Below are positions 1 through 18,841 of a stretch of DNA of 64,000 bases, in pieces. Below the pieces are notes generated by a model, which was given only the letters and a program-made list of their open reading frames with translations, was not told the origin of the DNA and ran no database searches. The DNA is taken from the NCBI GenBank assembly GCA_965248265.1, contig CBDFJF010000001.1, forward strand, positions 2,784,001 to 2,848,000, read 5' to 3'. Position 1 is the stretch's first letter. Every line of letters starts with the position of its first letter. The translations under genes and the position numbers were made by a program. The DNA is from Candidatus Latescibacterota bacterium. Lineage in GTDB: Bacteria > Latescibacterota > UBA2968 > UBA8231.

Positions 1-122
1 CGCAGACTGCCCCTGACAGAATCCCCGACGATGAGAGCGCCGGTCAATACAGAGGTCGCCACGGCGGCCCCGAGCGCCACCGACACGCTCAGACCGCGGT
101 AGTACCTCAGACTTCGAAGCAC
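1..122 (-). CDS. ABC transporter permease (FtsX/MacB-like), 5' part only; runs off the window
   Basis: Not in the ORF track. The minus frame from the GTG at 122 reads VLRSLRYYRGLSVSVALGAAVATSVLTGALIVGDSVRGSL, a typical N-terminal TM segment of large ABC permeases. It overlaps the 3' end of the ABC ATPase. Confidence 0.7.
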   Translation of the reverse strand, partial: MLRSLRYYRGLSVSVALGAAVATSVLTGALIVGDSVRGSL

Positions 123-823
123 TGACCGTCTCTCAACTCCAACCGGCGGCCGCAGCGCGCGGCGATGTCCATACTATGACTGACGACGATGAGCATGTTA
201 TCCTCAGCCCGGTGAAGCTCGAACAAGAGTCCGGCAACAGCTTCGGCCGTGGAGTGGTCGAGGTTACCGGTCGGCTCGTCGCACAGGAGCAACCCGGGAC
301 GATTCATCAGGGCCCGTGCCACGGCCGCACGTTGACATTCCCCACCCGAAAGCTCGGCTGGCGTATGGTGTGCCCGTTCTTCCAGGCCGACACCCTCCAG
401 CAATTCCAGCCCGCGTGCACGCGCATCGGCATCGATGCGAGCAAAGGCCAGCACCGGCATGAGTACGTTTTCGAGCACGGAGTACTGCGGCAGCAACTGA
501 TGATTCTGGAAGACAAAACCGATGCCCCGGTTTCTGAAGCGTGCCAACGCACCCTCTTGCAGAGAGAAAGGATCCTCGCCGTCAATGTCGATGTGCCCGT
601 CGCTGGGTGGTTCCAAGGTGCCGATGATGTGGAGAAGGGTGCTCTTTCCAGAACCGGAGGGCCCGGTTATCGCCATCGACTCTCCAGCTTGCAAGCTGAA
701 GCTAATGCCCTCGAGAACCCGTACCTCATCTTGCCCGCGGTCGAAGCCCTTGCACAGAGAGGCAACCTCCAGACTGGCCGGTCGATGATCCATAAGCCGC
801 GATGGATGATCCATGAAGGTCAC
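107..823 (-). CDS. ABC transporter ATP-binding protein (LolD/MacB-like)
   Basis: Walker A GPSGSGKS, IGFVFQ, signature LSGGECQR, Walker B LLLCDEPTGNLD, H-loop VSH. Confidence 0.93.
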   Translation of the reverse strand: MTFMDHPSRLMDHRPASLEVASLCKGFDRGQDEVRVLEGISFSLQAGESMAITGPSGSGKSTLLHIIGTLEPPSDGHIDIDGEDPFSLQEGALARFRNRGIGFVFQNHQLLPQYSVLENVLMPVLAFARIDADARARGLELLEGVGLEERAHHTPAELSGGECQRAAVARALMNRPGLLLCDEPTGNLDHSTAEAVAGLLFELHRAEDNMLIVVSHSMDIAARCGRRLELRDGQCFEV

Positions 824-831
824 GGTGGCTG

Positions 832-1257
832 TCAGGCCGGCTTTGCTTCTATCTTGCCGCGTATCCCTGGGGGGATGGTGATCGCCTTCATCTCCTCACC
901 TGGGTTGCAGCGGCAGCAGACTACGGTCAATTCGCCGTGCGCGATCTCAGTCTCCCCTCTCGAAAAGAGAAACTCGTAGGTCATCGATTTGTCGCCGATG
1001 CGGCGGACAGTCAGGTGGATGTCGAGTTCCTCTTCGAAATAGGCTGGGTTGGAGAAGGTGCACGACGACGCCAGACGCGGCCATCCGATGGTGTTGCCAT
1101 CCTCATCTTCTCCCCCGTGCACACACAACCCAAGCGAGCGCAGGAACTCGTGCTCTGCCTGCTCCATCAGAACGTAGAATCGGGAGAAGTGAACGATCCC
1201 GGCCATGTCGGTGTCGACGAACTCGATGCGACGCCGAGTGTCGTATTCATGAGCCAT
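832..1257 (-). CDS. Acyl-CoA thioesterase (4HBT/YbgC hot-dog fold)
   Basis: Motif FVDTDMAGIVHFSRF...EQAEHEFL; 141 aa. Confidence 0.88.
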   Translation of the reverse strand: MAHEYDTRRRIEFVDTDMAGIVHFSRFYVLMEQAEHEFLRSLGLCVHGGEDEDGNTIGWPRLASSCTFSNPAYFEEELDIHLTVRRIGDKSMTYEFLFSRGETEIAHGELTVVCCRCNPGEEMKAITIPPGIRGKIEAKPA

Positions 1258-1275
1258 GAAGCCAGATCCCTCCGA

Positions 1276-1743
1276 TCAGGTTGGCCGGAACAGCGTCACC
1301 AGACAGGCGCCGGTGGCCGCCATGGCGATACCGAGGACAAAGGGCCAGTTCAGCGTGGCCAACCCACCGGCCGGCGGGTGCACGATCATCGCCAGTACGG
1401 CGTTGACGATGGGTGCCCCGGCGAAGACGATCGACATCACTACCGGAGGCGTGCCCTTGGCACCGAACGCCAGGATGACTCCCAGGGCGCCAAGGGCGCC
1501 GGCAATGCCGGCTGCCGTGCTCCACACCACTCCCCTGCTGGCGAAACTCCAATCGGCATCGTTCAGTTTGAGGATCAACAGTGAACCCAGAACACCGGCC
1601 ATCAGGTAGGCCAGACCGACGAACAGGAAGGCCTTGTAGCGACCGTTGATCGGATCCCCCATCGCCATCTGGCCCGTGTGCAGGAGGACGCCGTAGGTCC
1701 CCCAGCACAACACACTCATACCTGCAAAGATATACCAGGTCAT
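1276..1743 (-). CDS. Small multi-pass membrane protein (DMT/EamA-like)
   Basis: About 5 hydrophobic helices; CWGTYG and VMSIVFAGAPIVN motifs. Confidence 0.6.
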   Translation of the reverse strand: MTWYIFAGMSVLCWGTYGVLLHTGQMAMGDPINGRYKAFLFVGLAYLMAGVLGSLLILKLNDADWSFASRGVVWSTAAGIAGALGALGVILAFGAKGTPPVVMSIVFAGAPIVNAVLAMIVHPPAGGLATLNWPFVLGIAMAATGACLVTLFRPT

Positions 1744-1773
1744 TTCCCCCTCCCCTTTTCTCTTGTTGCTGCG

Positions 1774-3063
1774 TCAGACGAACTGCTCGTAGACCCTTCG
1801 TGTTTCCCGTGCCATGATCTGAGCTGAGAACGACTCATGGATGGTTGTCATTCCCCTGCTGCCGATTTCACGGCGCCTTGGGGCATCGTTCAACAGCTGC
1901 TCGATCCCTTCCGCCAGCGACTCGGGCGAGTTGGCCTGGACCAGGATGCCGCCGCCCGTCCACTCAATCAGCTCGGGAAAGCTCCCGTGGCGTGGCTGCA
2001 CCACCGGGACACCGTTGGCCAGTGCCTCTAGAACGTAAAGACCTTTCGGATCCTCATAGACCGTGGGGACAGAGAGCATGTCCAGTGACTGCAGAAAGCG
2101 CAGCTTGTCGCCGCGATCGACTTCGCCGACGAACTCCACTGAACCCTCAAGTCCGGCAGAGCGAAGACGCTCCACCACCTTCGTATAGTACATCCGGTCG
2201 CCTCGACCGAGCCAGCCTGCTACCCGCAGACGCACGGGGACGGGTGCGGCGCGCTGCGCCACCAGCTGGTAGGCATCCGCTAAAAGGTGCAGACCTTTTT
2301 CCGGGGCGATGCGAGCGAGATAGCCGATGGTAAAGGGCGAATCGGGACGATTCTCAGCGACGCCGCATCCAGACAGATTCACCCCCAGTTTCACCAGATG
2401 AAAGCGCGATGCAGGTAGCGCCAGGTAGTCACTCATGAAATCGGAGTACCACTGGCAGGGCGAGATGATGCCATCGATGTCCTGCGACCTGGCCTGGAGC
2501 GTCGTGTGGGCGACGGATCGACAGGGCTCCACCAGAGCGTCGAGGAACAGCTCCTCCCCCTGGATGCTGCAAAGGACCGGTACGCCCAGCTGCTCCTTGA
2601 GGTAACGGGCCATGCCCGAGAACATGGAATTGGTGAGATGAACGATGTCCGGATTTACCTCGTCGCGGATCCAATCGACCAGGCGCCGCAATTCCTTCTT
2701 CTGATGACCGGTCTCGCCGTTGAGGACGGAAACGGTCAGGCCTCCAAGGTCTGTGGCGCTGGTGCTGGCACTGAATGTGTTCGACACCCAGCGCAACAGC
2801 GACGGACGGTCAAACAGCCAGTCTACCATCCGTGGTGTATGGCGGAACAGGGACAGCTTCTCCTGGAGGAAGACATTGACGCCACCGTAAAAAATGTTCC
2901 CCTCGACGCTGACGCCGTCTTCGTCCGTGCGCAGTGGTGTGTAAGTGGGGATCAGCGTCACCTCGGTGCCCTGTTGCAGCAGCGCGGCGGCGAGGGTGTT
3001 GTCGTGGATGCAGCTGCCGCAGTACATGCCCCCGGCCCCGGCGGCGATGTAGGCGACCCGCAT
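1774..3063 (-). CDS. Glycosyltransferase family 4 (GT-B)
   Basis: Start taken at MRVAYIAAGAGGMYCGSC (ATG 3063, overlapping the symporter stop). Motifs GYLARIAPEKG and EDPKGLYVLEALANGVPVV. Confidence 0.88.
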   Translation of the reverse strand: MRVAYIAAGAGGMYCGSCIHDNTLAAALLQQGTEVTLIPTYTPLRTDEDGVSVEGNIFYGGVNVFLQEKLSLFRHTPRMVDWLFDRPSLLRWVSNTFSASTSATDLGGLTVSVLNGETGHQKKELRRLVDWIRDEVNPDIVHLTNSMFSGMARYLKEQLGVPVLCSIQGEELFLDALVEPCRSVAHTTLQARSQDIDGIISPCQWYSDFMSDYLALPASRFHLVKLGVNLSGCGVAENRPDSPFTIGYLARIAPEKGLHLLADAYQLVAQRAAPVPVRLRVAGWLGRGDRMYYTKVVERLRSAGLEGSVEFVGEVDRGDKLRFLQSLDMLSVPTVYEDPKGLYVLEALANGVPVVQPRHGSFPELIEWTGGGILVQANSPESLAEGIEQLLNDAPRRREIGSRGMTTIHESFSAQIMARETRRVYEQFV

Positions 3064-4526
3064 CAGTTTGACGGAAAGAACCGGTCGACGACGCTCTTGT
3101 CCGGTGGTCGAGTGAGTAGCGATCCGACGATCATGGCCACCGTCGAGGCCGCCAGAATCACGGCAACGGGCATGATGCCGGTGTCGCCGAGGGTGTGACC
3201 GGGGGACTCCCATCCTATCTGGAAGAAGTAGGTCCACAGGCAAGCCACCGTGACCAGCGCCGCAGCAGCGCCGTACTTCGTGCTGCGCCTCCAGAACAGG
3301 GCGGCCGCAACCAGGGGGAAGAGGGCGGCGAAACCCGTGAAGGACCACACTCCAAGTTTGAAAATACTGCGGTCCGTCGTCAGCGATAGGATGTAGGTGA
3401 CGACGAGAACGAGGGCGACGAAGAGCCGGCCGTAGAGCACCTGCTGTCGCTCACTCATGTGGTCTCGAAAACCGTAGTGGCGGACAATGTCTTGAGTAAA
3501 CATTGTCCCTATCGAGAGCACCTGCGAATCGAGTGATGACATCACCGCGGCGAATACCCCTGCTGCGAGCAGGCCCGCCAGAATCTCGGGAGCGTGCATG
3601 TCGATGACGCGTATGAGAATCGAGTTGGCTGCCGGACCCTTGAGATTCGGAAAATCGATGCGGCCGATGATACCGAGGGTGACACTCGGGATCCACACGG
3701 CGGCGATACAGATGGGATAGATCTTGAGCGGAACCCGGAAGGTCTGGGCGCGGCGAGCCGTCAGCCAGTGCATGAACATGTGCGGGAACATTCCGACGGA
3801 CAGAGGGATGCAGGTGTAGGTCAGCAGCTTCAATGGCTTGATCTGCTCCCCGCGAATGAGGAGGTCCGGATGACTCTCGGATACCGTCTTCATCGCCTGA
3901 TGCAGTCCGCCGTGCTGATGAAGAATGAAGAAGAAGGCGGTCCCGCCGAGGATGACGAAGACGAGTGTTTGAAAGGCGTTGGCCCAGGCGGTTCCGCGCA
4001 GCCCGCCGTAGCAGACGTAGGTCAGGACGACGAGACAAACCAACAGTCCCCCGACCCATTCCGGCACATCGCCTTTGGTGATTTGATGCAGGGTGATGCC
4101 GCCACCGGACACCCCGATGAGGAGGTAGGGGATGAGCAGGGCAATGAGGACGATGAAGAGTGCCAGTCCGAGCGAGTCTGAGCCCCAACGCTGGCGGAAG
4201 TACTGCACTTGAGTGAGTAGACCGAGTCGCTTTCCCAATGCCCACACGCGAGTGCCAACGAAGAAGAAGACGCAGGGAATGATCAACGCCGAGGACGAGG
4301 CCATCAGGCCGAACACAACGATGCCCTCGTGGTAGGCCTCCCCTGACGCGCCAAGAATGGCGAAGGCAGTCATGTTGGTACCAAAGAGCGACATCAGCAG
4401 CAGGAACGGACCGATCGAGCGACTGGCGACGAAGTAGTCTTCCCCCGTGCCGCGAAAGAGGCGGTGACTCAGGCTACCGATGGCGACTACCAGACACAGG
4501 TAGAGGATGATGATGGTCAGCGTCAT
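3063..4526 (-). CDS. Sodium:solute symporter (SSS; PanF/PutP-like)
   Basis: DYFVASRSIGP, YGGLRGTAWAN, AAVMSSLDS; about 13 TM helices. Confidence 0.92.
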   Translation of the reverse strand: MTLTIIILYLCLVVAIGSLSHRLFRGTGEDYFVASRSIGPFLLLMSLFGTNMTAFAILGASGEAYHEGIVVFGLMASSSALIIPCVFFFVGTRVWALGKRLGLLTQVQYFRQRWGSDSLGLALFIVLIALLIPYLLIGVSGGGITLHQITKGDVPEWVGGLLVCLVVLTYVCYGGLRGTAWANAFQTLVFVILGGTAFFFILHQHGGLHQAMKTVSESHPDLLIRGEQIKPLKLLTYTCIPLSVGMFPHMFMHWLTARRAQTFRVPLKIYPICIAAVWIPSVTLGIIGRIDFPNLKGPAANSILIRVIDMHAPEILAGLLAAGVFAAVMSSLDSQVLSIGTMFTQDIVRHYGFRDHMSERQQVLYGRLFVALVLVVTYILSLTTDRSIFKLGVWSFTGFAALFPLVAAALFWRRSTKYGAAAALVTVACLWTYFFQIGWESPGHTLGDTGIMPVAVILAASTVAMIVGSLLTRPPDKSVVDRFFPSN

Positions 4527-4753
4527 GGCGCCTCGTCATCCTCCTCGTCGACTTCCAGATGTTCAGGCCAGGCGTAAGTGACCAGCAGGGTCAGCATCAC
4601 GGCGGCGGCCAAACAGAACAGGATGTGGTAGACGAAACCAACGGGTAAGCCGGCAACCAGGCCGGCATCGTGCCACAACCACAGGTCATTGTGGAGCAGG
4701 TACAGGAGGAAGGCCATGAGGTAGAGCAGCCCACGTGAGACCGAATTGCTCAT
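4523..4753 (-). CDS. Small membrane protein, DUF3311-like (SSS partner)
   Basis: LHNDLWLW...GLPVGFVYH; two TM helices; coupled immediately upstream of the SSS gene. Confidence 0.75.
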   Translation of the reverse strand: MSNSVSRGLLYLMAFLLYLLHNDLWLWHDAGLVAGLPVGFVYHILFCLAAAVMLTLLVTYAWPEHLEVDEEDDEAP

Positions 4754-6024
4754 GGTTTGCTCGTCTCCATCTGTTGCCCGTATTGAGGAGGCACTTCGCA
4801 CATTTCACCGAGCGGGGCCAGCACCCGCTGAACATCCTCGGTTTGCAGATTTCCACTGAGAATATCGACAATCCCACGCCGGCATTCCGGATGCCGCCTC
4901 AGGAACTCGCTGAAGCTGAATTCATCTTCGTAGAAAGCGTACACCAGACGGCGCACCGCTTCCATGCCTCGCAGGTAGTGCTGTTCGAATTTGCCGAGTT
5001 GGGCAGCGCTGGTGTCGTCGCTGGCCAGACCCTCGATGATGGCATCTGCCGCCATTTCGCCTGATACCAGCGCCAGGTACACGCCAGAAGAGTAAATAGG
5101 ATCCACGAACCCGAACGCATCGCCAACCAGGACCCAGCCATCGCCGGCGATGCGATCCGCCCGGTAGGAGAAATCCTGCGTCACCTTCGCCGGCATGATC
5201 CGCTGGGCACCAGCCAGACGTTGCTGCATCGGCTCACACAGGGCTACTTCTTCAGCGAAGATCTCTTCAGCATCGCCGTCGCGCCCGCGCAGCAGGTAGT
5301 CGAGCGCCCCGACCACGCCGACACTGACGCGATCGTCGGGCAGTGGAATGTACCAGAACCAGGATTGTTTGTGGCGAGTGTGCAGGATGAGAGTTGCCCC
5401 CTCGTCGATGCCGTCGTCGCGGAGTCCCCCGACGAAGTGGGTGAAGATGGAAGCCTTTTTCAATCTTGGTTCCAGCTTCTTCACGCCCAGACGACGGGCG
5501 ATCAGGGCGCTTTGTCCGGTGGCATCCACGACCACCCTTGAGCTCACCTCGCGTTCACCGCCATCCGTGGCAACCGCCCTAACCCCTGTGGCCCGCTCGC
5601 CGTCGAAGAGAACCTCCCGGACGGGGACTCCCTCGACAACATGGGCTCCTTTGTCACGCGCGTTCTCCATCATCATGCCATCGAACTCGCTGCGCACGAC
5701 CTGCCACGTCACCGCACTGTCGTGCGGGTCGAACTCCTGGAAGTAGAACGGGGCCGAGCCGCGACCGGAGGCCCCGAAGAACTGGACGCTGTACTTGCGC
5801 GGAAACGAACTCGCTTCCAGCCGCTCCAGCATCCCCAGCCGCTTGAAGGTCCAGTAAGTCCCCGGCATGAGGGACTCGCCAACCTGGAATGGCGAGGTGG
5901 CATCGCGCTCCAGCAACAGAACGCTGTGTCCCTGTTGCGCGACCAGTGTGGCTGCGGTGGAGCCGGCTGGTCCTCCGCCGATGACGATGACATCATAGCC
6001 GTCTTTGATGTCGCCTTCCTTCAT
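4750..6024 (-). CDS. FAD-dependent oxidoreductase, flavin-dependent halogenase type
   Basis: GGGPAG Rossmann motif, VGESL, DATG, WFWYIPL (WxWxIP), GDAFGFVDPIYSSGV. Confidence 0.82.
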   Translation of the reverse strand: MKEGDIKDGYDVIVIGGGPAGSTAATLVAQQGHSVLLLERDATSPFQVGESLMPGTYWTFKRLGMLERLEASSFPRKYSVQFFGASGRGSAPFYFQEFDPHDSAVTWQVVRSEFDGMMMENARDKGAHVVEGVPVREVLFDGERATGVRAVATDGGEREVSSRVVVDATGQSALIARRLGVKKLEPRLKKASIFTHFVGGLRDDGIDEGATLILHTRHKQSWFWYIPLPDDRVSVGVVGALDYLLRGRDGDAEEIFAEEVALCEPMQQRLAGAQRIMPAKVTQDFSYRADRIAGDGWVLVGDAFGFVDPIYSSGVYLALVSGEMAADAIIEGLASDDTSAAQLGKFEQHYLRGMEAVRRLVYAFYEDEFSFSEFLRRHPECRRGIVDILSGNLQTEDVQRVLAPLGEMCEVPPQYGQQMETSKP

Positions 6025-6029
6025 GGCCC

Positions 6030-7364
6030 TCAAAACCCTTGCGGACGCGGGCGGCGATCGGTAACCCGTTTCGCTTTGAGTTCGAACCGGGGAAGTTCCC
6101 CGGGGCCGGCGAGCTCAACGCCGGCGCGGATTCCCAGGTTCGTGTGCAACGCGTGCTGTAGCTTTCCTTGCAGAATCCCCGAATCATCCGATTCGCCATC
6201 ACAAAGCTCGACTCGCACCAACAGCTCGTCCATCTCACCCTGGCAAAAGGCCTCGACAGCGAACTCGACAACCTGATCGAACTGACGCACGGCGCTTTCG
6301 ATGGCGCTGGGGTAGACGTTGATACCGCGTATGATCAAGACGTCATCGAGACGGCCGATGACACCGCCGGCAAGCCGGCGATAGGTCCTTCCACACGGGC
6401 AATTGTCCTGTTGGTGCCAGCGCACCCGATCGCCGGTGCGATAGCGAATTACCGGCATTGCCGTACGATCCAAATTCGTAATCACCAACTCCCCTTCTTC
6501 ACAGGGTTGCTGCGTCTGCGGATCCAGCACTTCACAAATGAACTCGCTCTCGTTCACGTGCAGGCCGTCCTGGACTTCACACTCGAATCCCCAGGCACCC
6601 ACTTCCGTCGCCCCGGCATGGTCGAAACAACGAGCCCCCCAGGCCCGTTCGATCTTGCTCTTGGTAGCCGGAATACTGGCCCCCGGCTCACCGGCGTGAA
6701 TGGTCCTGCGAACGGCGGAGTTGGCGATGTCCAAACCCAATCCCCGTGCGACCTCAGCCAGGTGCAGTGCGTAGGTCGGAGTGCAGACCAGCACGGTGGC
6801 TTGGTTCGCGAGAATCGCCTGTAGACGTTGAGGAGAAGACATACCACCCCCCGTAATCGCCAGCGCGCCCAGCTGGGAAGCCCCCTCGCAGGCGCTCCAG
6901 AAACCGATGAACGGCCCGAACGAGAACGCGAAAAAGATGCGGTCGTCAGCCCCGACTCCGGCGGCGCGGTAGACGGCCTGCCAACAGCGGCCCCACCAGC
7001 TCCAACTCTGGGCAGTATCCAACCACCGCAGGCGCTCTCCCGTGGTCCCGGAAGTCTGATGCAGACGGGCGTAGGCTTCGTGTGGCAGACTGCAGTTGGT
7101 GCCGTATGGCGGATATGCCTGCTGGTCTTCGGACAACTCGTCCTTGGTCGTGTACGGCAAGCGCGTGAGGTCCGCCAGGGACGCGATATCCGTGGCTGCC
7201 CGTATCCCTGCCGCGTGGAGTTTATTGCGATAGAAAGGATTGTCCTCCAGCATGATCGTCAGCTGCGACCGCAACCGTTCGAGTTGCTGCTGTTCCAACT
7301 CCCCGCGCGCGAGCGCTTCGCAGGCAACTATGTTGCTGTGTGGAGTTGAAGTCAGCTCAATCAC
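6030..7364 (-). CDS. Phenylacetate-CoA ligase (PaaK)-family adenylate-forming enzyme
   Basis: LPYTTKDEL, HQTSGTTG, GEPG, DHAGATE, IRYRTGD, GRLDD, GINVYPSAIE. Confidence 0.88.
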   Translation of the reverse strand: MIELTSTPHSNIVACEALARGELEQQQLERLRSQLTIMLEDNPFYRNKLHAAGIRAATDIASLADLTRLPYTTKDELSEDQQAYPPYGTNCSLPHEAYARLHQTSGTTGERLRWLDTAQSWSWWGRCWQAVYRAAGVGADDRIFFAFSFGPFIGFWSACEGASQLGALAITGGGMSSPQRLQAILANQATVLVCTPTYALHLAEVARGLGLDIANSAVRRTIHAGEPGASIPATKSKIERAWGARCFDHAGATEVGAWGFECEVQDGLHVNESEFICEVLDPQTQQPCEEGELVITNLDRTAMPVIRYRTGDRVRWHQQDNCPCGRTYRRLAGGVIGRLDDVLIIRGINVYPSAIESAVRQFDQVVEFAVEAFCQGEMDELLVRVELCDGESDDSGILQGKLQHALHTNLGIRAGVELAGPGELPRFELKAKRVTDRRPRPQGF

Positions 7365-7445: not shown

Positions 7446-8795
7446 TCACGTATAGCGTGAGTTTCGGTAACGCTCATCGTAGAAGGCCGGCAGCAACTGG
7501 TCAACACGCAGCATCCCGTCAGCTGTGAGCTGAACCTCGTCGGCGTCAAAGGCCAGCATGCCCTCGGACTGCAGCGCCTGTAGGGGTTGCTCAAATCGGG
7601 TGATGATGTCGACGCCGTGACGCTCCCGAAAGTATTGGGGATGCACCTGCCCGAGTTTGAGTTGCAGTATCAACTCACGTGTCAGCCGCTCATCAGCCGT
7701 GGTCTCAAATGCCCGGTTCACGGGTAGCTGGTGACGGGACAGCGCTTCGAGGTAGTCGTCCCAACGGTCCTTGTTCTGGTAATGGACACCACCCATATGC
7801 GAGATCGCGGACACCCCCGCGCCGATCATATCGCTGCCGCGCCACAGGGCATCACGATACACGAAACGCTGATCGCCCCGCGTCTCTTTGACCACTGTAT
7901 AGGCGCTGGAGGCTCTGTAGCCATGCGCTTGAAACTGATCGAACGCGTACTGATGCCACTCGCGCTTGGTTTGCCAATCAGCAGGTCGAATGTCGCCATT
8001 GCCATCGCCGGTGAGCGCTTTGGAGTACACTGTATTGTAGGGCAGTTCCATCTGGTACACAGTGACGCTGTCGGCATCCAGATCTATGGTCCGTTGCACA
8101 GTGTCACGCCACGTCTCCCAGGTCTCTCCAACCATGCCGGCAATGAGATCGACGTTGAGCTGGTCGAACTCCTGCTGCCTGATCCACGGCATGACCCGGT
8201 AAACCTCCTCCGATATATGAGCGCGCCCGTTCTCTCGCAGGATGGCATCGTCCAGATTTTCCACACCCAGACTTAGACGCGTGACTCCAACCTCCCGAAT
8301 CGCCACCAGCTTGGCCTCGGTCAGGGTGCCGGGTTCGCACTCGAAGCTGATCTCCTCGGCCGCATCCCAGGGAAGCACGTCGTGCAACTTGCTCACCAGC
8401 GAGCGCAGGTGACGCGCACTGATGTAGGAGGGAGTGCCGCCACCGAAGTAGACGAACTTCAGAGGGCGACCCTCAATGCGGGGCCGCCCTAAGTACATCT
8501 GGACTTCGTCAACCAGCGCTGTCAGGTAGCTGTCGATCTGCGCCGCATTTTTGTCCGTGAAAACGCGAAAGTAACAGAACTTGCAGCGCTTGCGACAGAA
8601 TGGAATGTGCAGGTAGAGACCGAGATCCGTGGCGTGCACAGGCTCCGAGTTCAGCGCCTCGGCTACCGCTCCCACCTGTTCTTCCGACCAGAACGAATAG
8701 GGTGGATAGTTCGACACGAAGACGCTGCCGACCTCGGTGTCGGAGAGAATGTCATCGAGCCTGGTGGTAGCGGGCTCGGGTTTGATTTCACTCAA
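7446..8795 (-). CDS. HemN-like radical SAM enzyme (class C type)
   Basis: LYLHIPFCRKRCKFCYF (CxxxCxxC), YFGGGTPS, RLSLGV, NVDLIAG, GAGVSA; HemN_C-like tail. Confidence 0.9.
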   Translation of the reverse strand: MSEIKPEPATTRLDDILSDTEVGSVFVSNYPPYSFWSEEQVGAVAEALNSEPVHATDLGLYLHIPFCRKRCKFCYFRVFTDKNAAQIDSYLTALVDEVQMYLGRPRIEGRPLKFVYFGGGTPSYISARHLRSLVSKLHDVLPWDAAEEISFECEPGTLTEAKLVAIREVGVTRLSLGVENLDDAILRENGRAHISEEVYRVMPWIRQQEFDQLNVDLIAGMVGETWETWRDTVQRTIDLDADSVTVYQMELPYNTVYSKALTGDGNGDIRPADWQTKREWHQYAFDQFQAHGYRASSAYTVVKETRGDQRFVYRDALWRGSDMIGAGVSAISHMGGVHYQNKDRWDDYLEALSRHQLPVNRAFETTADERLTRELILQLKLGQVHPQYFRERHGVDIITRFEQPLQALQSEGMLAFDADEVQLTADGMLRVDQLLPAFYDERYRNSRYT

Positions 8796-8801: not shown

Positions 8802-9938
8802 TCAGTCCGGGTTGCCGAAACAATAGAGGACGCCGTCTTCGCTACCGATTACCAGGCGGCCATCCGCGACGGCAGCCGAGGCTACGATGGTTGCCCCGGT
8901 GTCGTAGCTCCAGAGCTCCGTGCCAGTGCCTACATCAAGAGCGTGAACGGATCCCTTAGAAGATCCGAAAAAAAGACGTTCACCGGAAATCACTGGAGAC
9001 GAATCGACCCGGGCGCCCGCATCGAACAGCCACCGGGGCTGCCCCGTCTTTCGGTCTAACCCATGCACGGTCCGATCCCGACCGGCTGCCACAACCAGGT
9101 CCGCCGTTATCGCGGTTGAAGCGTAGTACGGCTGTCGCCGTTGGGGATGCTGATAGCGCCAGCGAACCGTCTCAGTCAGAAGGTCGACGGCAAGCACCTG
9201 ATTCCCGAAGGTGCCGAAATAAGTGGTCCCCGAATCATCGATGGCACAGCTGGCCGCCACGTAGCCGCCAACCTGGACGACGCCTTCTTCGCTGCCGTCT
9301 GAAAGATCGAGTCGGCGCAGAAATCCGTCACAACCTGCCGTCACGACGGTTGAATCGAAGATGGCCGGCGTGCCGTGCACATAGCCCTCAGTCTCAGCTC
9401 GCCAGACCAGCTGACCGTCGGCGGCAAACAGGCAGTACACTCGACTGTCGTAACTGCCGAATATGACCCGGTCACCCCATGGATGAGCCGACGATGTGAT
9501 GCCGGCCTCGGCATCGAAGGTCCACAACAGTTCGCCGCTGAGTGCATCCAGAGCGTAAAACCTGCCCGACTCGTCTCCGAAGAACAGGCGTCCCTCAGCG
9601 ACTCCGGCGGATGACTTAATCTCATCGCGGGCAGCAAAGGTCCACCGCGGCTCTCCCGAACTCAGATCCAGGGCGTAGAGGTGACCGTCGAGATTGCCAC
9701 TGTACACCGTGCCATTCCAGATCGCCGCCGTCGACTCGATCCCGGGAGGTGCACGACTGCTGTCTGAAGCTGTTGGCCGAACCGCCCACAACAGCTCCAG
9801 CCCCTGGGGCAGTGCACTGAGGGCACGGCCGCTTTGACGATGATCGCCGCGGAAAAGAGCCCACGAAGTGGAATCAGCCTTGACGGGTACCACCGGCAGA
9901 GCGGTGAGAACTGTCAGGATTTGCAACCAGCGTCTCAA
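8802..9938 (-). CDS. Secreted PQQ-binding-like beta-propeller protein (BamB-like)
   Basis: Signal peptide, WALFRGD, repeated SxP/A...G.DG.LYALD..G...W blades. Confidence 0.85.
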   Translation of the reverse strand: MRRWLQILTVLTALPVVPVKADSTSWALFRGDHRQSGRALSALPQGLELLWAVRPTASDSSRAPPGIESTAAIWNGTVYSGNLDGHLYALDLSSGEPRWTFAARDEIKSSAGVAEGRLFFGDESGRFYALDALSGELLWTFDAEAGITSSAHPWGDRVIFGSYDSRVYCLFAADGQLVWRAETEGYVHGTPAIFDSTVVTAGCDGFLRRLDLSDGSEEGVVQVGGYVAASCAIDDSGTTYFGTFGNQVLAVDLLTETVRWRYQHPQRRQPYYASTAITADLVVAAGRDRTVHGLDRKTGQPRWLFDAGARVDSSPVISGERLFFGSSKGSVHALDVGTGTELWSYDTGATIVASAAVADGRLVIGSEDGVLYCFGNPD

Positions 9939-11074
9939 GAGGCCGCCTTGTAGAGGTTCAGAATCTCTGCATCCGTTACCGGCCGCGGGTTGAATTGCGC
10001 CGTCTTCTGGGACGCCGCCTCGGACGCCAGTCTGGGAAGGTCACCCGCCGGCACACCAAGATCACTGAGGCCTGTCGGCATCGATGCCTCCTGCAACAAC
10101 GTTTCGACGCGCTTGAGCAGGGCCGTCACCGAACCTCGCCTTGGTGAGTCCAGGACCTGTGCCAACTGGGCGTAGTCAGCCGAGCAGGTTTCGGCGTTGA
10201 AGCGTATGACGTGCGGCAACATCACCCCGATGGCCACGCCGTGGACGATTCCGTACCGAGCCGTCAGCGGATTGGCGCACGCATGGGTCGCCCCTAGCAT
10301 AGACCGCTCGATCGCGGCACCCGCCCAATGCGCCCCGAGCAGCATGCGCGCCCGCGTGGCGGTACCTGGCGCGTCATTGAGGCTGTCCCTGAAACTCGCG
10401 TCGAGCAACCGCAGGGCTTCCGACGACAGGAATCGCGACTGTGGTCGCGCTGTCGTGGAGACGAAACTTTCAATGGCATGAGAAAGGGCGTCCACGCCGA
10501 CGGCCCTGCGCGTTGGAAGTGGCACCGTGCGCGTCAACTCGGCATCCAGGATGACGGCCCGGAACCGGGCCCGCGAGTCTCCGCAAGCCATTTTCTCGTG
10601 ACTGTCCGCGGCTGAGATAAGTGCGAAGCGCTGGGCTTCACTGCCTGTTCCGGCCGTCGTCGGCACGCCGATGGATGGAAACATCGGCTTGGATGCCAAG
10701 CCATCGCCCCGGTAGTCTTCCATACGGCCACCGTTACTGAGCAGAAAGTTGACCCCCTTGGCGCAGTCCATGGCGCTGCCACCGCCGAGACCGATGATGG
10801 TGATCTCTGCGCCGAGTTGCCGCGCCTGCGCCGTCGCCTCCTCGACATGGTGGGTCGTCGGATTCTCTGCGACGCCATCGAAAACCGAACAGTCAATGGA
10901 TGCTGAGTGCAGAGAGGACAAGGCCACGTCCACGATGCCCGCCTTTGCGACACCTTCATCGCTCACAAGAAAGGCATTGCGGCCGCCGAGATCGGCGGCC
11001 AACTCTCCCAGGCGCGAAAGCCCTCCCGCCCCGAGGATGACCCGTGGGTGGCTGTTGTCAGCTTTTGCAGACAA
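9935..11074 (-). CDS. Iron-containing alcohol dehydrogenase
   Basis: GLGGGSAMDCAK, VPTTAGTGSE, DALSHAIES, HACA...HG metal ligands. Confidence 0.93.
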   Translation of the reverse strand: MSAKADNSHPRVILGAGGLSRLGELAADLGGRNAFLVSDEGVAKAGIVDVALSSLHSASIDCSVFDGVAENPTTHHVEEATAQARQLGAEITIIGLGGGSAMDCAKGVNFLLSNGGRMEDYRGDGLASKPMFPSIGVPTTAGTGSEAQRFALISAADSHEKMACGDSRARFRAVILDAELTRTVPLPTRRAVGVDALSHAIESFVSTTARPQSRFLSSEALRLLDASFRDSLNDAPGTATRARMLLGAHWAGAAIERSMLGATHACANPLTARYGIVHGVAIGVMLPHVIRFNAETCSADYAQLAQVLDSPRRGSVTALLKRVETLLQEASMPTGLSDLGVPAGDLPRLASEAASQKTAQFNPRPVTDAEILNLYKAAS

Positions 11075-12482: not shown

Positions 12483-12811
12483 TCAGCTACTCACCTGTGA
12501 CTCTGGTGATACCATTTCCGATTGCTCAAATATCGATTGAGTGGGGGATAGTCTTGCCATATACCGTTGCCGTTGATGGTGTTGGTTCAGCCCTTTCCTA
12601 AACTGCCAGTCGGTCTTGTTCTTGTTTGTTGCTCTCCTTGGTACCGTCTTGGTGTTTCTGTTGACGTCTTAGGTGCTTGCCGTTGGTGTTTGGTGATGTC
12701 TCTGGTTTTGACGTTGCAACTTCACTCTTGTTTCTGCTGGTTTGCTGATACTTCCCCAAGAGAGTGGACACCTCGAAGCGCCAAGTTAAATTTCTGGCAG
12801 GAGGTGTTCTT

Positions 12812-13099
12812 ATGTCACGCAAGTATGATCGTGAGTTTAAGCTCGAGGCCATTCGCCTGGCCGCAGAAGAAGGGGTATCGGCCCGAGGGGTCGAGCAACG
12901 ATTGGGTTTAAGTGCAGGCATTATCAGTCGTTGGAAGAGAGAATTGAAGGTCCAAGGAGATGAAGCCTTCCCAGGTACCGGCCATTTAGGTGATCACGAC
13001 GAGGAGGTCCGCCGTTTGCGGCGTGAGCTGGCGCGGGTGTCCCAGGAACGAGATATCCTAAAAAAGGCGGCGGCCTTCTTCGCCAACGAGTCCAGATGA
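12812..13099 (+). CDS. IS3 transposase OrfA (HTH)
   Basis: MSRKYDREFKLEAIRL...ERDILKKAAAFF; RBS GGAGGT before ATG 12812. Confidence 0.9.
   Translation: MSRKYDREFKLEAIRLAAEEGVSARGVEQRLGLSAGIISRWKRELKVQGDEAFPGTGHLGDHDEEVRRLRRELARVSQERDILKKAAAFFANESR
13060..13066 (+). promoter_or_regulatory. -1 programmed ribosomal frameshift site A AAA AAG (OrfAB fusion)
   Basis: CTA AAA AAG in the orfA frame just before the ATGA orfA/orfB overlap; canonical for IS3. Confidence 0.7.
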
Positions 13100-13965
13100 G
13101 GTATCGCTTCATCGAGGTGGAGAAGGCGATGTACCCGGTCACTATGTTGTGTCGCGTGCTGCGGGTGTCGCGTAGCGGTTTCTACGCCTGGCAGCAGCGC
13201 CCGATCAGTCCTCGAGCTGAGCAGACTCGGCGACTGGATGTCGAGATCAACAAGTTGTTTGAAGCCAGCAAGCGGCGCTCCGGTAGCCCAAAGATCACCC
13301 GCGCCCTGATAGACGGAGGCTGGCAGGTGGGCGAGAATCGCGTTGCACGGCGCATGCGTGTGTTGGGTCTGCGTTCGATTGTGCGACGCCGTTTCAAGGT
13401 GACGACCAACTCGCAACATCGATTTGCGGTGGCGCCGAACCGTTTGCAGCGCGATTTCACCGCACAGCGCCCCAATCAAGTGTGGGTCAGCGACCTGACC
13501 TACCTCAGCGTCGGTCGCGGCTGGTTGTATTTGGTCGTCGTCATCGACCTGTACTCCAGGCGCGTGGTGGGTTGGGCGTTGAGCTCGGCACTGGATCACC
13601 GCGTGGCGCTGGTCGCGCTGCAGCGGGCTGTAGCTCAACGTCGTCCGCCGAGGGGTCTGATCATCCATTCCGATCGCGGCGTTCAATACGCCTGCACCGC
13701 GTTCACTAACTGGGTCAGCAAACACGGCTTTGTGCAGAGTATGAGCCGTAAGGGCGACTGCTGGGATAACGCCGTGGCTGAGTCCTTCTTCCATCTGCTC
13801 AAGACCGAGTTGACCTACCACGAACACTGGCTCAACTACCGGGCCGCGTATCGCAGCCTGTTCGACTACATCGAGATTTTTTACAATCGAGAAAGGAGTC
13901 ATTCCACCCTGGATTACGCAACACCCGCAGCATTCGAGCAGCATTCAACCAAACTTGCTGCTTGA
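13096..13965 (+). CDS. IS3 transposase OrfB (rve integrase, DDE)
   Basis: WVSDLTY, IHSDRGVQY, CWDNAVAESFF, YNRER.HSTL. Confidence 0.95.
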   Translation: MRYRFIEVEKAMYPVTMLCRVLRVSRSGFYAWQQRPISPRAEQTRRLDVEINKLFEASKRRSGSPKITRALIDGGWQVGENRVARRMRVLGLRSIVRRRFKVTTNSQHRFAVAPNRLQRDFTAQRPNQVWVSDLTYLSVGRGWLYLVVVIDLYSRRVVGWALSSALDHRVALVALQRAVAQRRPPRGLIIHSDRGVQYACTAFTNWVSKHGFVQSMSRKGDCWDNAVAESFFHLLKTELTYHEHWLNYRAAYRSLFDYIEIFYNRERSHSTLDYATPAAFEQHSTKLAA

Positions 13966-14066
13966 CGGTGTCCATTTTTCCGGGGGAGTATCACCCGAAG
14001 CCGCGACGAAGCCCGCCGCGGGCAAGGAGCACACGGGGACGAGCCCACCAACACGCGGACCCACCC

Positions 14067-16582: not shown

Positions 16583-16621
16583 GTCGTCTTTCTCTTCCGC
16601 TTGCGAGTCGGGATTGCTCGT

Positions 16622-18841
16622 TTAGTCTGCCGCCACCATCACGTTGTCATAGTAGAGCAGTGCCGCTGAGTAACCGTAGAGTCCCGGACTACCTTGGCGA
16701 TTGGGCAGGGGATCCGTGGCCGTGATCGTCCATTGTTCCGGCTCATCCGCGTCCCTCCTCCACACCTTTCCGCGAACGACGGCCTCCCCGGACTCGGTGT
16801 CGACCCGCATCTTCACCGTGTACCACACGCCCATTTCCCAGACAAAATCGATGGTCTTCTCCATGCGAAGAGCCGCCGCCCATGACCGCACCTGCAGCCG
16901 CTGATGGTTTCCCATCAGGTCGAGGGTGTAGCGTTGCGCGATCAGCCCGACGTCGGGACGATTGCGCTTGCCCTGCGTCCCCATGACATCCGCCTGCACG
17001 GTGTAACCGGACATCGACGGAGGACCGATGTAGACGTTCGACCGCTGCAGGCCCCGTTTGGCCAGACCCTTCATGAGAACGCGCTCTCCGTCAAGGTCGA
17101 CGACGGAGAACTTGCCGCCTCCGGAGCCGATCCAGGAGGCGGGAGCCGGGTTGGATCCGGCTTCAGCGCTCATGCTGTCAAACGTCTCTGCCTGGTCACC
17201 GGAAGGCACCACTCGAACTCGAGCACGACTGGTTGCCGAACTCCCTTTGAGCTGCACCACGATGGTGCCGACTGAGCGACCAGCCGTTGCCGTGAAGACT
17301 CCACGGTCTAGGCTGCCTGACAGATCTTCCAGCGCCCACTCCAGGTTGTCGTCCTCGCTCATGGAGACGGGCGATCCGGTGTCATCGAATCCCCTCACTT
17401 CGAAGCGCGCCGTCGCCCCGGAGGGCATCAGCACTTCCGCCGGCACGATCTGGATGTGAGTTGGATGATTCGGGGAAACCGCTGCCGTTGCCACATCAGA
17501 CGCTGGAACCGCTGGCTTGTCATTCCCGTTGCCCAGACAGTACAGCCCCTCTTCGGTGGCGAAGTAGACGTTGCCGTAGCCTACCGCAGGTGAGCCAAAA
17601 ATTTCGGCGGCTCGACCATCCGACGTGGTGATCTGGTCACTGTCGAGGACGGATGCCGCGTCTTCGCTGACGTCCAGGATCTTCAACGTGCCATTCACTT
17701 CGGGGACGAACAATTTGCCATCCGCCCACACAGGCGATCCCTTGCCCACCCGGCCGACATTTTGTACCCACTGTTCCTCGCCGCTGGTCGCATCCAGGCA
17801 GTGCAGGTTGGCCGAGTTGTCGACGATGTAGAGCAGGCCATCATGAACGACAGGCGAGGTGTAGCCGGCCGGTACGCCGTCAGCGCGCCAGACCTCATGG
17901 CTGGCCGTCAGGTCGCCGGTTCCGCTACCGTCAATGCAGACGACGCGCCCCATGGTGGTCGTGTCCAGATTCTCCTCGCTGTGCGCGGCGTAGACTCGAT
18001 CTCCAGCGACCACGACGGATACGTTGAGGCCTCTGTTACTGAGACCAAAACCCCACACTTTGCGACCGGTGTGGACTTCAATCCCGTACACGGCGCCATC
18101 GGCATTGCCGCCGATGAGCAGGCGGCGGCCATCGATCTGGGCCATCACCGGAGTCGAGTAGGTCGTATCAAGTGGACGACCACCCGGTGTGGAAATCCAG
18201 ACGACGTCGCCACTGCGCTTGTCGAAAGCGAAGTAACGATGCCGCGGCACAGCCTGTTCACCCCAGCTGCTGTTGAGAAAGCTGACGATGACCAGGTCGC
18301 CATCCACGACTGGCGTGTGGATGCGACCGCCATAACCGGAGATGCGGCGGAACTCTTCGGTCAACGAGCGCGACCAGACGACCTCGCCGTCTCTGTCGTA
18401 GCACAGCAACAACCCCTGGACGCCGTGGACGTAGAGGTTGCCCGTTTCGGGATCAGCCGCCGGACTCGACCAGCCGACTCTGTTGAAGGGAATCGTGGTG
18501 TGGAAGACGTTGAAGCGATGCTCCCACAGCAATTCGCCGGTGAAGGCATCGTAGCAAGCGGTGCGTTCCTGCCTTTTAATGCCCTCGCCAACGCGCCCGA
18601 GTGCGCAGACCCTGCCATCGACGATGACAGGAGTGGACCGTCCTGTGAATGGCACCTTCCACAATTGGCCGTCGCCATCGACGCTCCAGGTATCGACCAG
18701 CCCGGTCTCGAGTGATACACCGCTTTGATGCGGTCCTCTCCAACCGGGCCATTGCGCGGGCGCCGGAGCGGTAGCGGCGCCAACCAGGATGGCGCCAAAG
18801 GCCAGCATCGTCGACAGTCGCGTGGTCCTGAAAGGCTTCAT
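16622..18841 (-). CDS. Secreted PQQ-like beta-propeller protein with C-terminal Ig-like and beta-sandwich domains
   Basis: Start MKPFRTTR (ATG 18841) with a signal peptide; WPGWRGP; STP blades; about 280 aa beta-rich C-terminal extension. Confidence 0.82.
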   Translation of the reverse strand: MKPFRTTRLSTMLAFGAILVGAATAPAPAQWPGWRGPHQSGVSLETGLVDTWSVDGDGQLWKVPFTGRSTPVIVDGRVCALGRVGEGIKRQERTACYDAFTGELLWEHRFNVFHTTIPFNRVGWSSPAADPETGNLYVHGVQGLLLCYDRDGEVVWSRSLTEEFRRISGYGGRIHTPVVDGDLVIVSFLNSSWGEQAVPRHRYFAFDKRSGDVVWISTPGGRPLDTTYSTPVMAQIDGRRLLIGGNADGAVYGIEVHTGRKVWGFGLSNRGLNVSVVVAGDRVYAAHSEENLDTTTMGRVVCIDGSGTGDLTASHEVWRADGVPAGYTSPVVHDGLLYIVDNSANLHCLDATSGEEQWVQNVGRVGKGSPVWADGKLFVPEVNGTLKILDVSEDAASVLDSDQITTSDGRAAEIFGSPAVGYGNVYFATEEGLYCLGNGNDKPAVPASDVATAAVSPNHPTHIQIVPAEVLMPSGATARFEVRGFDDTGSPVSMSEDDNLEWALEDLSGSLDRGVFTATAGRSVGTIVVQLKGSSATSRARVRVVPSGDQAETFDSMSAEAGSNPAPASWIGSGGGKFSVVDLDGERVLMKGLAKRGLQRSNVYIGPPSMSGYTVQADVMGTQGKRNRPDVGLIAQRYTLDLMGNHQRLQVRSWAAALRMEKTIDFVWEMGVWYTVKMRVDTESGEAVVRGKVWRRDADEPEQWTITATDPLPNRQGSPGLYGYSAALLYYDNVMVAAD

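Follow-up and report, generated by a model that had tools for sequence, protein, structure and literature searches.

A stretch of 64,000 nucleotides (nt) from a Candidatus Latescibacterota bacterium (GenBank assembly GCA_965248265.1, contig CBDFJF010000001.1, positions 2,784,001 to 2,848,000; hereafter the window) opens with a long row of genes for acid activation, acid reduction, halogenation, glycosylation and export, and it raises the question of what such a row makes when no scaffold synthase accompanies it. In our numbering the window is G000:C1:2784001-2848000, G000 being the source genome (7.3 Mb in two contigs, C1 and C2; 92% complete); other G-numbers designate genomes of relatives and L-numbers fetched loci. 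The list of open reading frames (ORFs) and comparisons with Pfam, NCBIfam and the PDB place sixteen co-directional ORFs on the minus strand between positions 1 and 18871, and a 17th gene, encoding a permease of 1132 amino acids (aa), extends 3.3 kb past the left edge of the window. The array is a genuine, tightly packed set of about 17 genes, common to several little-studied phyla, and its tailoring pathway is made of known enzyme families in an uncharacterised combination. The best-fitting reading, to which we give a probability of about 40%, is that the array tailors an electron-rich aromatic carboxylic acid into a halogenated, glycosylated benzyl-type alcohol, which is delivered to the cell envelope.

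The inheritance of these genes was followed in a panel of 40 relatives from the same family or class, which are not independent samples. Full-length orthologues of the putative reductase were found in 27 of them (55-61% identity, E <= 3.5e-169), and four further relatives gave only weak matches at the level of the aldehyde dehydrogenase (ALDH) family. Four other genes of the array were used as probes. The gene of a protein with five transmembrane segments (5-TM protein) was present in the same 27 genomes, that of the radical S-adenosylmethionine (SAM) enzyme in 26, and those of the halogenase and the PaaK-like ligase in 25, again the same genomes for both. All five genes were missing from 12 relatives, and discrepancies between probes were confined to three metagenome-assembled genomes that are 81-86% complete. 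Carriers and non-carriers are interleaved among genera within a single family, a pattern implying that the set was gained or lost as a whole several times. Three relatives (G010, G025 and G029) keep all parts although these are dispersed over 0.3-2.3 Mb, and in five Poribacteria with neither adenylase nor envelope genes at the radical SAM locus, the adenylase and the 5-TM protein are encoded elsewhere (5/5). Such all-or-none inheritance argues for one functional system. Far from being a rare biosynthetic gene cluster (BGC) at the strain level, the system is lineage-wide, occurs in several phyla and is inherited or lost whole.

Gene order was compared in the loci of ten relatives (31.6 kb fetched). 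The genes are collinear from the adenylase to the halogenase or beyond in seven of them, with 45-79% protein identity, and the cluster is split into two or three pieces in three (G010, G017 and G025). Species-level genomes were scanned with aligned sequences of the radical SAM protein; at least 587 stretches matched, and a relative of this protein is encoded in 557 of the 587 matches listed. The best 80 of these at least 587 matches were taken with up to 10 kb on either side, 25 of them being cut by contig ends, and orthologues were counted on the same strand at 40% identity or more (Table 1). These loci are labelled as Poribacteria (44), Latescibacterota/Latescibacteria (18) and Acidobacteriota classes (8), with one each from Gemmatimonadota, KSB1, 'Cytophagia' and 'Deferribacteres' and six unlabelled; the closest named loci among the matches listed belong to Latescibacterota. 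The gene of the 378-aa propeller lies directly upstream of the radical SAM gene in 75 loci and next to that of the iron-containing alcohol dehydrogenase (Fe-ADH) in 63. The initial annotation had named a lack of conserved gene order as what would speak against it, and the order held, in seven of the ten relatives and, for the core, in the 80 loci from several phyla.

The adenylase and the ALDH-fold reductase have, as far as their sequences tell, the features of the two-protein carboxylate reductases EhpF/EhpG and GriC/GriD. EhpF (PDB 3l2k/3hgu) is the sole solved relative of the adenylase (phmmer E 2.6e-45, residues 16-346), of which 21 orthologues are 70-79% identical. Cys289, the ALDH nucleophile, and Asn165 are kept in every one of the 24 reductase sequences compared. 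The position of the general-base Glu of hydrolytic ALDHs is held by His253, which is likewise invariant (24 sequences); this replacement would be expected of an enzyme that reduces an acyl thioester and does not hydrolyse it. The two genes are adjacent in all 25 adenylase-holding loci, and in the window an insertion sequence (IS) alone separates them. Co-folding of the two proteins gave a score of 0.76, compared with 0.00 for the best of three controls; this mark is reached by 116 of 157 solved complexes and by 2 of 215 mismatched pairs. At least 78% of the contacts were common to the three runs, the predicted local distance difference test (pLDDT) score of the partner was at least 87, and the contact residues sit within invariant stretches of both proteins. 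These models support the formation of a complex by the adenylase and the reductase. Identity with the LuxE/LuxC fatty-acid reductase was considered and rejected: neither PF04443 nor PF05893 was matched at E <= 0.001, matches being limited to AMP-binding (E 6.1e-7) and Aldedh (E 3.5e-12), and the strong match was to EhpF instead. As a separate observation, one contig in each of four sequencing runs omits 188 bases within the adenylase gene (window 14387-14576), its shorter flank being only 22 letters long; this skip probably stems from a related organism or is an artefact.

EhpF/EhpG belong to the pathway by which Pantoea agglomerans makes the phenazine D-alanylgriseoluteic acid, and GriC/GriD to the biosynthesis of grixazone, where the substrate is 3-amino-4-hydroxybenzoate (3,4-AHBA), a 3-substituted 4-hydroxybenzoate. 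The likeness to these systems lies in a short adenylase beside an ALDH-fold partner with a catalytic Cys, and in the expected chemistry, from an aromatic acid through the aldehyde to a derivatised alcohol. In contrast to them, the pair described here lies within a 17-gene system with exported propellers, importers, a family 4 glycosyltransferase (GT4) and a putative ATP-binding cassette (ABC) exporter of type VII, and genes for the synthesis of phenazines or 3,4-AHBA are absent. De novo supply of 3,4-AHBA was rejected, as a GriH-type PF01959 protein was not found in the source genome (92% complete).

The neighbouring enzymes point in the same aromatic direction. The halogenase matches PF04820 with 107.4 bits (cut-off 21) and, in the PDB, 8zop (E 6.5e-67), CndH (E 1.1e-55) and PltA (E 3.8e-53). 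Its alignments contain the motifs GGGPAG (GxGxxG), WFWYIP (WxWxIP) and GDAxxFxDPxxSxG, and the Lys of its FPRK motif aligns with the catalytic-site Lys in FPIK of CndH and FPKK of PltA. The absence of a scaffold synthase, already stated in the initial annotation, was confirmed: the phosphopantetheine-binding domain PF00550 (PP-binding) has two matches in the whole genome, the nearer about 720 kb off on the same contig and the other on the other contig. With no carrier protein near the cluster, the substrate of the halogenase must be free or bound to coenzyme A (CoA). The ligase, whose gene is next to that of the halogenase in 44 of the 80 loci, would be PaaK-like only and no PaaK equivalog, since it reaches 271.5 and 246.7 bits where the NCBIfam equivalog cut-offs are 700 and 646.3. 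The radical SAM enzyme has an invariant C67-x3-C71-x2-C74 motif and resembles ChuW/HutW, HemN and the STM4012 family of NCBIfam to about the same degree, below the equivalog cut-offs of ChuW (193.6 vs 400 bits), HemN (188.7 vs 324.95) and HemW (164.4 vs 205.4); its matches in the PDB include HemN (1olt, E 7.4e-42) and the methyltransferase NocN (E 7.6e-31). The hotdog thioesterase scores under the YbgC equivalog cut-offs. The known reactions of the reductase, halogenase, HemN-like radical SAM and PaaK-like families centre on electron-rich aromatic rings, and the enzyme set points to an electron-rich aromatic acid. In one relative the alignment of the halogenase orthologue (G027:C2:3455769-3456665) stops at residue 307-325, and an internal TGA interrupts the gene; while the rest of that cluster is intact, this copy may be a pseudogene.

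A candidate source of such an acid was found outside the array. Genes of the PF01947 family (Rv2949c-like chorismate pyruvate-lyase) are present in 19 of the 27 carrier relatives and in none of the 13 non-carriers. All five Poribacteria carriers have one, but of 14 control genomes only 3 do. The scores of four copies range over 41.6-72.6 bits, the cut-off being 22, and by this comparison the product would be chorismate pyruvate-lyase-like, a member of a family that forms 4-hydroxybenzoate. In the source genome the lyase gene (G000:C2:1129478-1130107) heads a satellite operon on the other contig (G000:C2:1129478-1134159; L124:5479-10160), which also encodes an aldo/keto reductase, a PD40/DPPIV_N propeller and a paralogue of a fourth propeller. 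The gene of this fourth propeller lies between the radical SAM and ligase genes in many relatives, and the source genome has three paralogues of it elsewhere. In G030 the lyase, aldo/keto reductase and fourth-propeller families are found inside the main cluster, the lyase gene overlapping the stop of a TonB receptor gene and lying 54 nt upstream of the ligase gene. The PF01947 gene is also within the cluster in three Poribacteria loci, and in G044 it lies 3.7 kb from the adenylase gene. Between its fourth propeller and TonB receptor, the G030 cluster was further seen to hold three aldo/keto reductases, a Gfo/Idh/MocA oxidoreductase and, at L026:6851-8050, a glucose/sorbosone dehydrogenase (PF07995) of the soluble glucose dehydrogenase (sGDH) family, which depends on pyrroloquinoline quinone (PQQ).

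The lyase is linked to the cluster by phyletic and neighbourhood association. The link suggests 4-hydroxybenzoate and its 3-substituted derivatives as a biochemical starting point, and to 4-hydroxybenzoate itself as the substrate we give roughly one chance in three. Supply by an Escherichia coli-type UbiC (PF04345) was rejected, as none was found in the source genome or in five carriers from other phyla. The acid, which the initial annotation took to be imported, need not be, since a chorismate pyruvate-lyase-like gene tracks the cluster; some lineages may synthesise 4-hydroxybenzoate and others take it up. The importers themselves differ by lineage: a TonB receptor is encoded in 20 of the 80 loci, a TAXI binding protein in 24 (Poribacteria), and the DUF3311-like protein with a sodium:solute symporter (SSS) in 12. 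The symporter is the likely importer of a carboxylate and the DUF3311-like protein probably its small subunit, their genes being side by side in 11 of the 12 SSS-holding loci. The cluster TonB receptor of the relatives passes the cut-off of the siderophore-receptor family TIGR01783 (256 vs 223.5 bits), its best equivalog being the catecholate receptor Fiu, and no orthologue of it was found in the source genome at E <= 1e-10.

Two known systems start from the same acid. In the available text of PMC7205293, Rv2949c makes p-hydroxybenzoate for the phenolic glycolipids of Mycobacterium tuberculosis, and the likeness to that system (Rv2949c, FadD22) would lie in a PF01947 lyase yielding p-hydroxybenzoate, in its adenylation and in glycosylated phenolics of the envelope (PMC7205293). 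The present system differs in that it has no polyketide synthase (PKS) or carrier protein, so that the acid would be reduced and not elongated, and in that it includes a halogenase and a radical SAM enzyme. M. tuberculosis also secretes p-hydroxybenzoic acid derivatives (p-HBADs), glycosylated phenolics that are likewise derived from p-hydroxybenzoate. In the bmp pathway of marine bacteria, Bmp6 is a chorismate lyase and Bmp5 and Bmp2 are flavin halogenases. The array resembles it in its possible chorismate-lyase-type supply of 4-hydroxybenzoate and in a flavin-dependent halogenase of the Bmp2/PltA branch; it differs in the absence of a P450 coupling enzyme, a proline/pyrrole module and a carrier protein, and in the addition of reduction, glycosylation and export steps.

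The remaining genes concern the envelope. The ABC ATPase is closest to LolD (PDB, E 1e-63) and YbbA (E 4e-53) and also matches DevA-type exporters (E 2.8e-46). The permease has about 10 hydrophobic segments; its five PDB matches at E <= 0.001 are MacB, YtrF or unnamed ABC permeases (best E 6.5e-6), and orthologues of 45-47% identity occupy the same position in five relatives, with a partial one in G008. Judged by their domains, the ATPase and the double-FtsX permease would make up an ABC system of type VII (MacB/LolCDE/FtsEX/YbbAP). In the available part of PMC12646458, such systems pull hydrophobic compounds out of the inner membrane and have periplasmic proteins as dedicated partners. By analogy, the propellers would be the obvious candidate partners here. 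The array resembles YbbAP-TesA and other type VII systems (LolCDE-LolA, MacAB, FtsEX-EnvC) in its LolD/YbbA-like ATPase, and YbbP in having a single permease with two FtsX domains; with YbbP it has this architecture alone in common, and its periplasmic partners are proposed ones, in contrast to those of the known systems.

All three propellers of the array have signal-peptide-like N-terminal segments. They are of the PQQ_2/BamB-like class, far under the cut-offs of quinoprotein dehydrogenases (TIGR03075/TIGR03074; best 84.5 bits vs 480). The 480-aa propeller is 65-74% identical in nine relatives. In the AlphaFold2 model of residues 450-749 of the 749-aa propeller (pLDDT 86.6), an Ig-like domain is combined with a concanavalin-like jelly roll, whose best match at the domain level is 4b1m, a structure of the carbohydrate-binding module CBM66 (Foldseek template-modelling score 0.67 on the target, root-mean-square deviation 3.6-3.8 A). 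This propeller is thus predicted to carry a lectin-like (ConA-like/CBM66-like) domain. Around another paralogue of the fourth propeller in the source genome (G000:C1:1310207-1318322; L122:7208-15323) we observed a second nest of exported-looking repeat proteins, comprising a PQQ_2 propeller, an FG-GAP/ASPIC protein, an ankyrin-PQQ_2 fusion of 739 aa, a 406-aa protein without assigned family and a tetratricopeptide repeat protein. The GT4 protein scores far under the cut-off of every NCBIfam equivalog. The 5-TM protein is 62-71% identical in 10 relatives and has at least 7910 homologues. It had been labelled a drug/metabolite transporter (DMT), for which Pfam gave no support: the lone match at E <= 10 is to the unrelated UPF0220 (E 0.59). 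Some of its homologues carry the JGI label 'DMT-like', and one has a precomputed PF00892 assignment; its AlphaFold2 model (pLDDT 55.9) is too poor for a fold search.

Taken as one pathway, these genes would work as follows. The acid, most likely 4-hydroxybenzoate or a close derivative, would be taken up by the DUF3311/SSS proteins, or in relatives by the siderophore-type TonB receptor or the TAXI protein; alternatively, it would be made from chorismate by the PF01947 lyase encoded on the other contig. The PaaK-like ligase would activate it, the adjoining flavin-dependent halogenase would halogenate the ring, the HemN-like radical SAM enzyme would C-methylate or otherwise modify it, and the hotdog thioesterase would free the acid again. 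The complex of EhpF-like adenylase and ALDH-fold protein would then reduce the carboxylate to the aldehyde through an acyl-Cys289 thioester, and the Fe-ADH would convert the aldehyde to a benzyl-type alcohol. GT4 would attach a sugar, transport of the product to the periplasm would fall to the 5-TM protein and the type VII ABC system, and the three exported propellers, one of them with the lectin-like domain, may bind or process it there. The initial annotation had proposed much the same logic of activation, reduction, halogenation, methylation, glycosylation and export; its families hold and it remains the best-fitting reading, supported in part. What the data show directly is the gene set with its conservation and all-or-none inheritance, the export signals, the catalytic motifs and the lack of carrier proteins.

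Several points weigh against this pathway. The order of its steps is inferred. The closest solved halogenases (PltA, CndH, Bmp2-type) use carrier-bound substrates, and the cluster encodes no carrier. The PaaK-like ligase and the halogenase are dispensable in some carriers, both being absent from the soil locus L108 and the ligase from four Acidobacteriota loci. The lyase gene is missing from 8 of the 27 carrier relatives, and all five carriers from other phyla (Holophagales, Thermoanaerobaculaceae, Gemmatimonadota, KSB1 and an unlabelled soil bacterium) lack both PF01947 and the UbiC-type PF04345. The siderophore-type TonB receptor and the importers encoded in many loci accord with uptake no less well than with biosynthesis. 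The permease has no sequence match to YbbP in the PDB at E <= 0.001. Finally, the IS insertion may have made the copy of the source genome partly non-functional.

The importers lead to the alternative that survives best, which we nevertheless hold to be unlikely: an uptake-and-conversion locus, where an exogenous aromatic or other carboxylate is acquired through a TonB receptor, exported propellers that bind or process it and an SSS or TAXI importer, and is then transformed in the cytoplasm for assimilation or detoxification, while GT4 and the ABC system serve a separate role in the envelope. Importers do recur in the 80 loci, although they are the most variable accessory; a carbohydrate-binding-like domain on an exported propeller is also a trait of polymer-utilisation systems, and a scaffold synthase is absent. 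However, the reduction of an acid to an alcohol, halogenation and glycosylation are anabolic or tailoring steps, atypical for catabolism. Moreover, the 5-TM protein, a marker of the GT4 side, matches the phyletic pattern of the reductase exactly (27 and 27 of 40), even where the two are unlinked, and no orthologue of the cluster TonB receptor was found in the source genome at E <= 1e-10.

The same receptor bears on a second alternative, in which the product is a shuttle molecule, a metallophore or periplasmic cofactor, that is exported by the type VII ABC system, used or bound by the propellers and recaptured by the TonB receptor and an inner-membrane importer. An exporter, an importer and three to four dedicated periplasmic proteins in one unit would suit such a cycle, as would the Fiu-like receptor above the TIGR01783 cut-off and the gene of the PQQ-type sGDH family inside the G030 cluster. 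The receptor is, however, missing from the source genome and from most Poribacteria loci, chelating-group chemistry is not evident, and the propellers are BamB/PQQ_2-like and far under the quinoprotein dehydrogenase cut-offs. We hold this explanation to be quite improbable. PqqC was not found in the source genome, in a search that had no positive control and is hence uninformative. A more specific form, slightly less probable still, joins the shuttle to the proposed acid: a redox cofactor or ligand derived from 4-hydroxybenzoate (a halogenated or methylated glycoside of hydroxybenzyl or quinone type) would be exported by the type VII ABC system to 'empty' quinoprotein-like propellers and recaptured through TonB in some lineages. 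If true, this ligand would amount to a PQQ-like cofactor system or a metallophore cycle in Poribacteria, Latescibacterota, Acidobacteriota and others.

A product that belongs to the envelope as a lipid is very improbable. Here a fatty alcohol, formed by reduction of a fatty acid, would be glycosylated and leave the cell as a glycolipid, in the manner of the heterocyst glycolipids and DevBCA. The match of the ATPase to DevA-type exporters and the resemblance of GT4 with a MacB-type ABC system to a glycolipid export cassette speak for it, and matches to BrtI, the exporter of bartoloside glycolipids, occur in the Halo_AMP clusters discussed below, as given in the available part of bioRxiv 10.64898/2026.08.03.742642. 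On the other hand, the adenylase and the reductase match EhpF and ALDH and, at E <= 0.001, not LuxE/LuxC, the halogenase, HemN-like enzyme and PaaK-like ligase point to aromatic substrates, and the chorismate-lyase-like gene tracks the cluster. The decoration of an envelope lipid, which the initial annotation had left as a second option, gained no support, LuxC/LuxE and fatty-acyl signatures being absent from the Pfam matches. That the array is a mosaic of two or three unrelated operons lying side by side, as the split clusters of three of ten relatives and of most Poribacteria and the carriers without PaaK and halogenase might suggest, is hardly credible when five probes are gained and lost together in 40 relatives, three incomplete genomes excepted, and when all five split-cluster Poribacteria hold the other parts elsewhere.

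Tailoring of an aromatic acid thus remains our preferred reading, and we looked for described counterparts. No characterised pathway with this gene set was found in the literature searched. A preprint by Loureiro et al. (bioRxiv 10.64898/2026.08.03.742642) describes, in its available part, a pseudoclass of sponge-microbiome clusters named Halo_AMP, defined by a PF04820 halogenase with an AMP-binding enzyme. As far as that part goes, these clusters are reported from Acidobacteriota, Latescibacterota and Poribacteria, fall into 20 connected components and are catalogued with no product assigned; PQQ-like domains, radical SAM enzymes, glycosyltransferases, thioesterases and TonB receptors are noted as frequent in them, along with Bmp2-like halogenases and BagE/YtkN-like ligases (bioRxiv 10.64898/2026.08.03.742642). 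The Halo_AMP rule, a custom one for antiSMASH, asks for PF04820 and AMP-binding genes within a distance cut-off; in the array the halogenase and PaaK-like genes overlap by 4 nt, and the AMP-binding score is 24.8 bits. The array would share with Halo_AMP the halogenase and AMP-binding pair, the phyla and the accessory families, and on the available part of the preprint it is probably one of the 20 connected components. The carboxylate reductase module, export with propellers, all-or-none inheritance and the chorismate-lyase link are, relative to that part, described here only. The cluster, which the initial annotation called undescribed, is so in having no characterised pathway with its gene set, but clusters of its kind are catalogued in the preprint.

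The present analysis adds that dispersed modules are inherited all or none, that the reductase pair has a Cys/His signature and a predicted complex, that one propeller is predicted to bear a lectin-like domain, that the IS inserted recently and that a chorismate-lyase-like gene is associated with the cluster. In this system a rare two-protein carboxylate reductase and a halogenase come together with a type VII ABC machine and exported propellers, three or four in number. More than 550 species-level genomes are among its matches, and the 5-TM family has the size given above; the system ranks with the more widespread orphan clusters of phyla that have few cultured members or none. It escapes rule-based BGC finders, since PKS, nonribosomal peptide synthetase and carrier protein are all lacking. 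Should the product prove to be a halogenated phenolic glycoside, the system would be relevant to where the natural organohalogens of sponges and soils originate.

The coordinates of the array are given in Table 1. The gene families named in the initial annotation are all present on the minus strand. Its statement that neighbouring genes overlap or nearly touch holds with two exceptions: the spacing is at most 39 nt except for 81 nt between the radical SAM and PaaK-like genes and 1584 nt at the IS. Of the permease gene that the initial annotation listed, only 122 nt lie inside the window; its start overlaps the ATPase stop by 16 nt, and the full protein has two FtsX domains. For the DUF3311 protein the match to PF11755 was recovered, but its score is under the Pfam cut-off of 30 bits. 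A scan of the array for promoters and terminators gave counts at or below shuffled expectation and is thus uninformative.

Table 1. Genes and other features of the array in window coordinates, with the number of orthologues in the best 80 of at least 587 matched loci
Feature	Position	Strand	Supporting matches	Orthologues in 80 loci
Double-FtsX permease, 5' end	1..122, onward L001:14724-18122	-	two PF02687 FtsX stretches	
LolD/YbbA-like ABC ATPase, putative type VII ABC nucleotide-binding subunit	107..823	-	PF00005 E 5.4e-34	
Hotdog-fold acyl-CoA thioesterase (4HBT/YbgC superfamily)	832..1257	-	PF13279 E 4.9e-10, PF03061 E 2e-7	
5-TM protein, 155 aa, no assigned family; possibly half-size DMT-like transporter	1276..1743	-		8
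GT4 glycosyltransferase	1774..3063	-	PF00534 E 4.6e-26, PF13439 E 7.8e-11	15
SSS sodium:solute symporter, PanF/PutP-like	3063..4526	-	PF00474 E 2e-36, TIGR00813 E 1.8e-41	12
DUF3311-like small membrane protein	4523..4801	-	PF11755 E 2.2e-5, 24.9 bits	
Flavin-dependent halogenase, short PltA/CndH/Bmp2-type form	4750..6033	-	PF04820, PDB matches	48
PaaK-like aryl-acid adenylating enzyme/CoA ligase	6030..7364	-	PF14535 E 1.3e-18	52
HemN-like (class C) radical SAM enzyme	7446..8795	-	PF04055 E 2.7e-21, PF06969 E 9.9e-9	
Exported PQQ-like/BamB-like propeller, 378 aa	8802..9938	-	PF13570 195.9 bits (cut-off 133), PF13360	75
Iron-containing alcohol dehydrogenase (Fe-ADH)	9935..11074	-	PF00465 E 1.9e-43, PF25137 E 1.2e-39	64
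ALDH-fold reductase, EhpG/GriD-like, 474 aa	11058..12482	-	PF00171 E 3.5e-12	37
IS3-family insertion sequence, outside pathway	12746..13993	+	NF033516 transposase E 2.6e-103	
EhpF/GriC-like adenylase, 357 aa	14067..15140	-	PDB EhpF match E 2.6e-45	25
Exported PQQ-like propeller, 480 aa	15140..16582	-	PF13360 E 4.1e-29; hydrophobic N-terminal segment, residues 11-29	
Exported PQQ-like propeller, 749-aa ORF, likely start Met 18841	16622..18871	-	PF13360 E 3.2e-30	

For GT4, whose start had been placed at 3348, the Met at 3063 is the most likely one; its last base coincides with the stop codon of the SSS gene at that codon's first base. Over its first 95 residues the long ORF is an Arg-rich alternative-frame sequence, and four of six relatives align only from residue 95-96. 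The frame is open over 95 codons upstream on the minus strand (3063-3348), where it runs over the symporter gene's 3' end, which is read in a different frame. This open overlap also aligns in G002 and G008 and probably results from the conservation of the symporter sequence in DNA of high G+C content.

The IS3 element is present in the array between the adenylase and reductase genes, as had been said, but it lies on the plus strand and is intergenic. It measures 1248 bp with 42-nt inverted repeats and occurs in six copies of 99.9-100% identity across both contigs of the genome, which indicates recent transposition. Around the copy in the array a 3-bp target duplication is not evident, the two flanks reading tgc and ccc. 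Both of its junctions are found in contigs of four runs from one sample, possibly the source of the assembly, so that the insertion is real at least in that sample. None of these contigs joins across the IS; contigs of read runs drop rare variants, and the lack of such a join does not prove that an empty allele is absent. The element breaks no gene; it faces the operon, and transcription of the fourteen genes that lie downstream may be lowered by it.

Both flanks of the array were examined for further members. On the right, a 599-aa fusion of an AmpD-type N-acetylmuramoyl-L-alanine amidase with a galactonate/mannonate dehydratase-like enzyme of the enolase superfamily (window 18846-20645, minus strand) ends 4-26 nt from the first propeller gene; it was rejected as a member, a counterpart at that position being found in 1 of 10 relatives (G015, 62% identity). 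To the left of the window, which the initial annotation had proposed to search for more genes, the permease continues and the genes beyond it are not conserved beside the cluster. These were rejected as well, as no orthologues of them were found there in the four relatives with at least 2 kb fetched beyond the permease. Directly past the permease (L001:12157-14719) lie a second ABC ATPase and two ABC-2 permeases (PF06182), and after a gap beyond these a sugar nucleotidyltransferase is encoded at L001:10667-11620.

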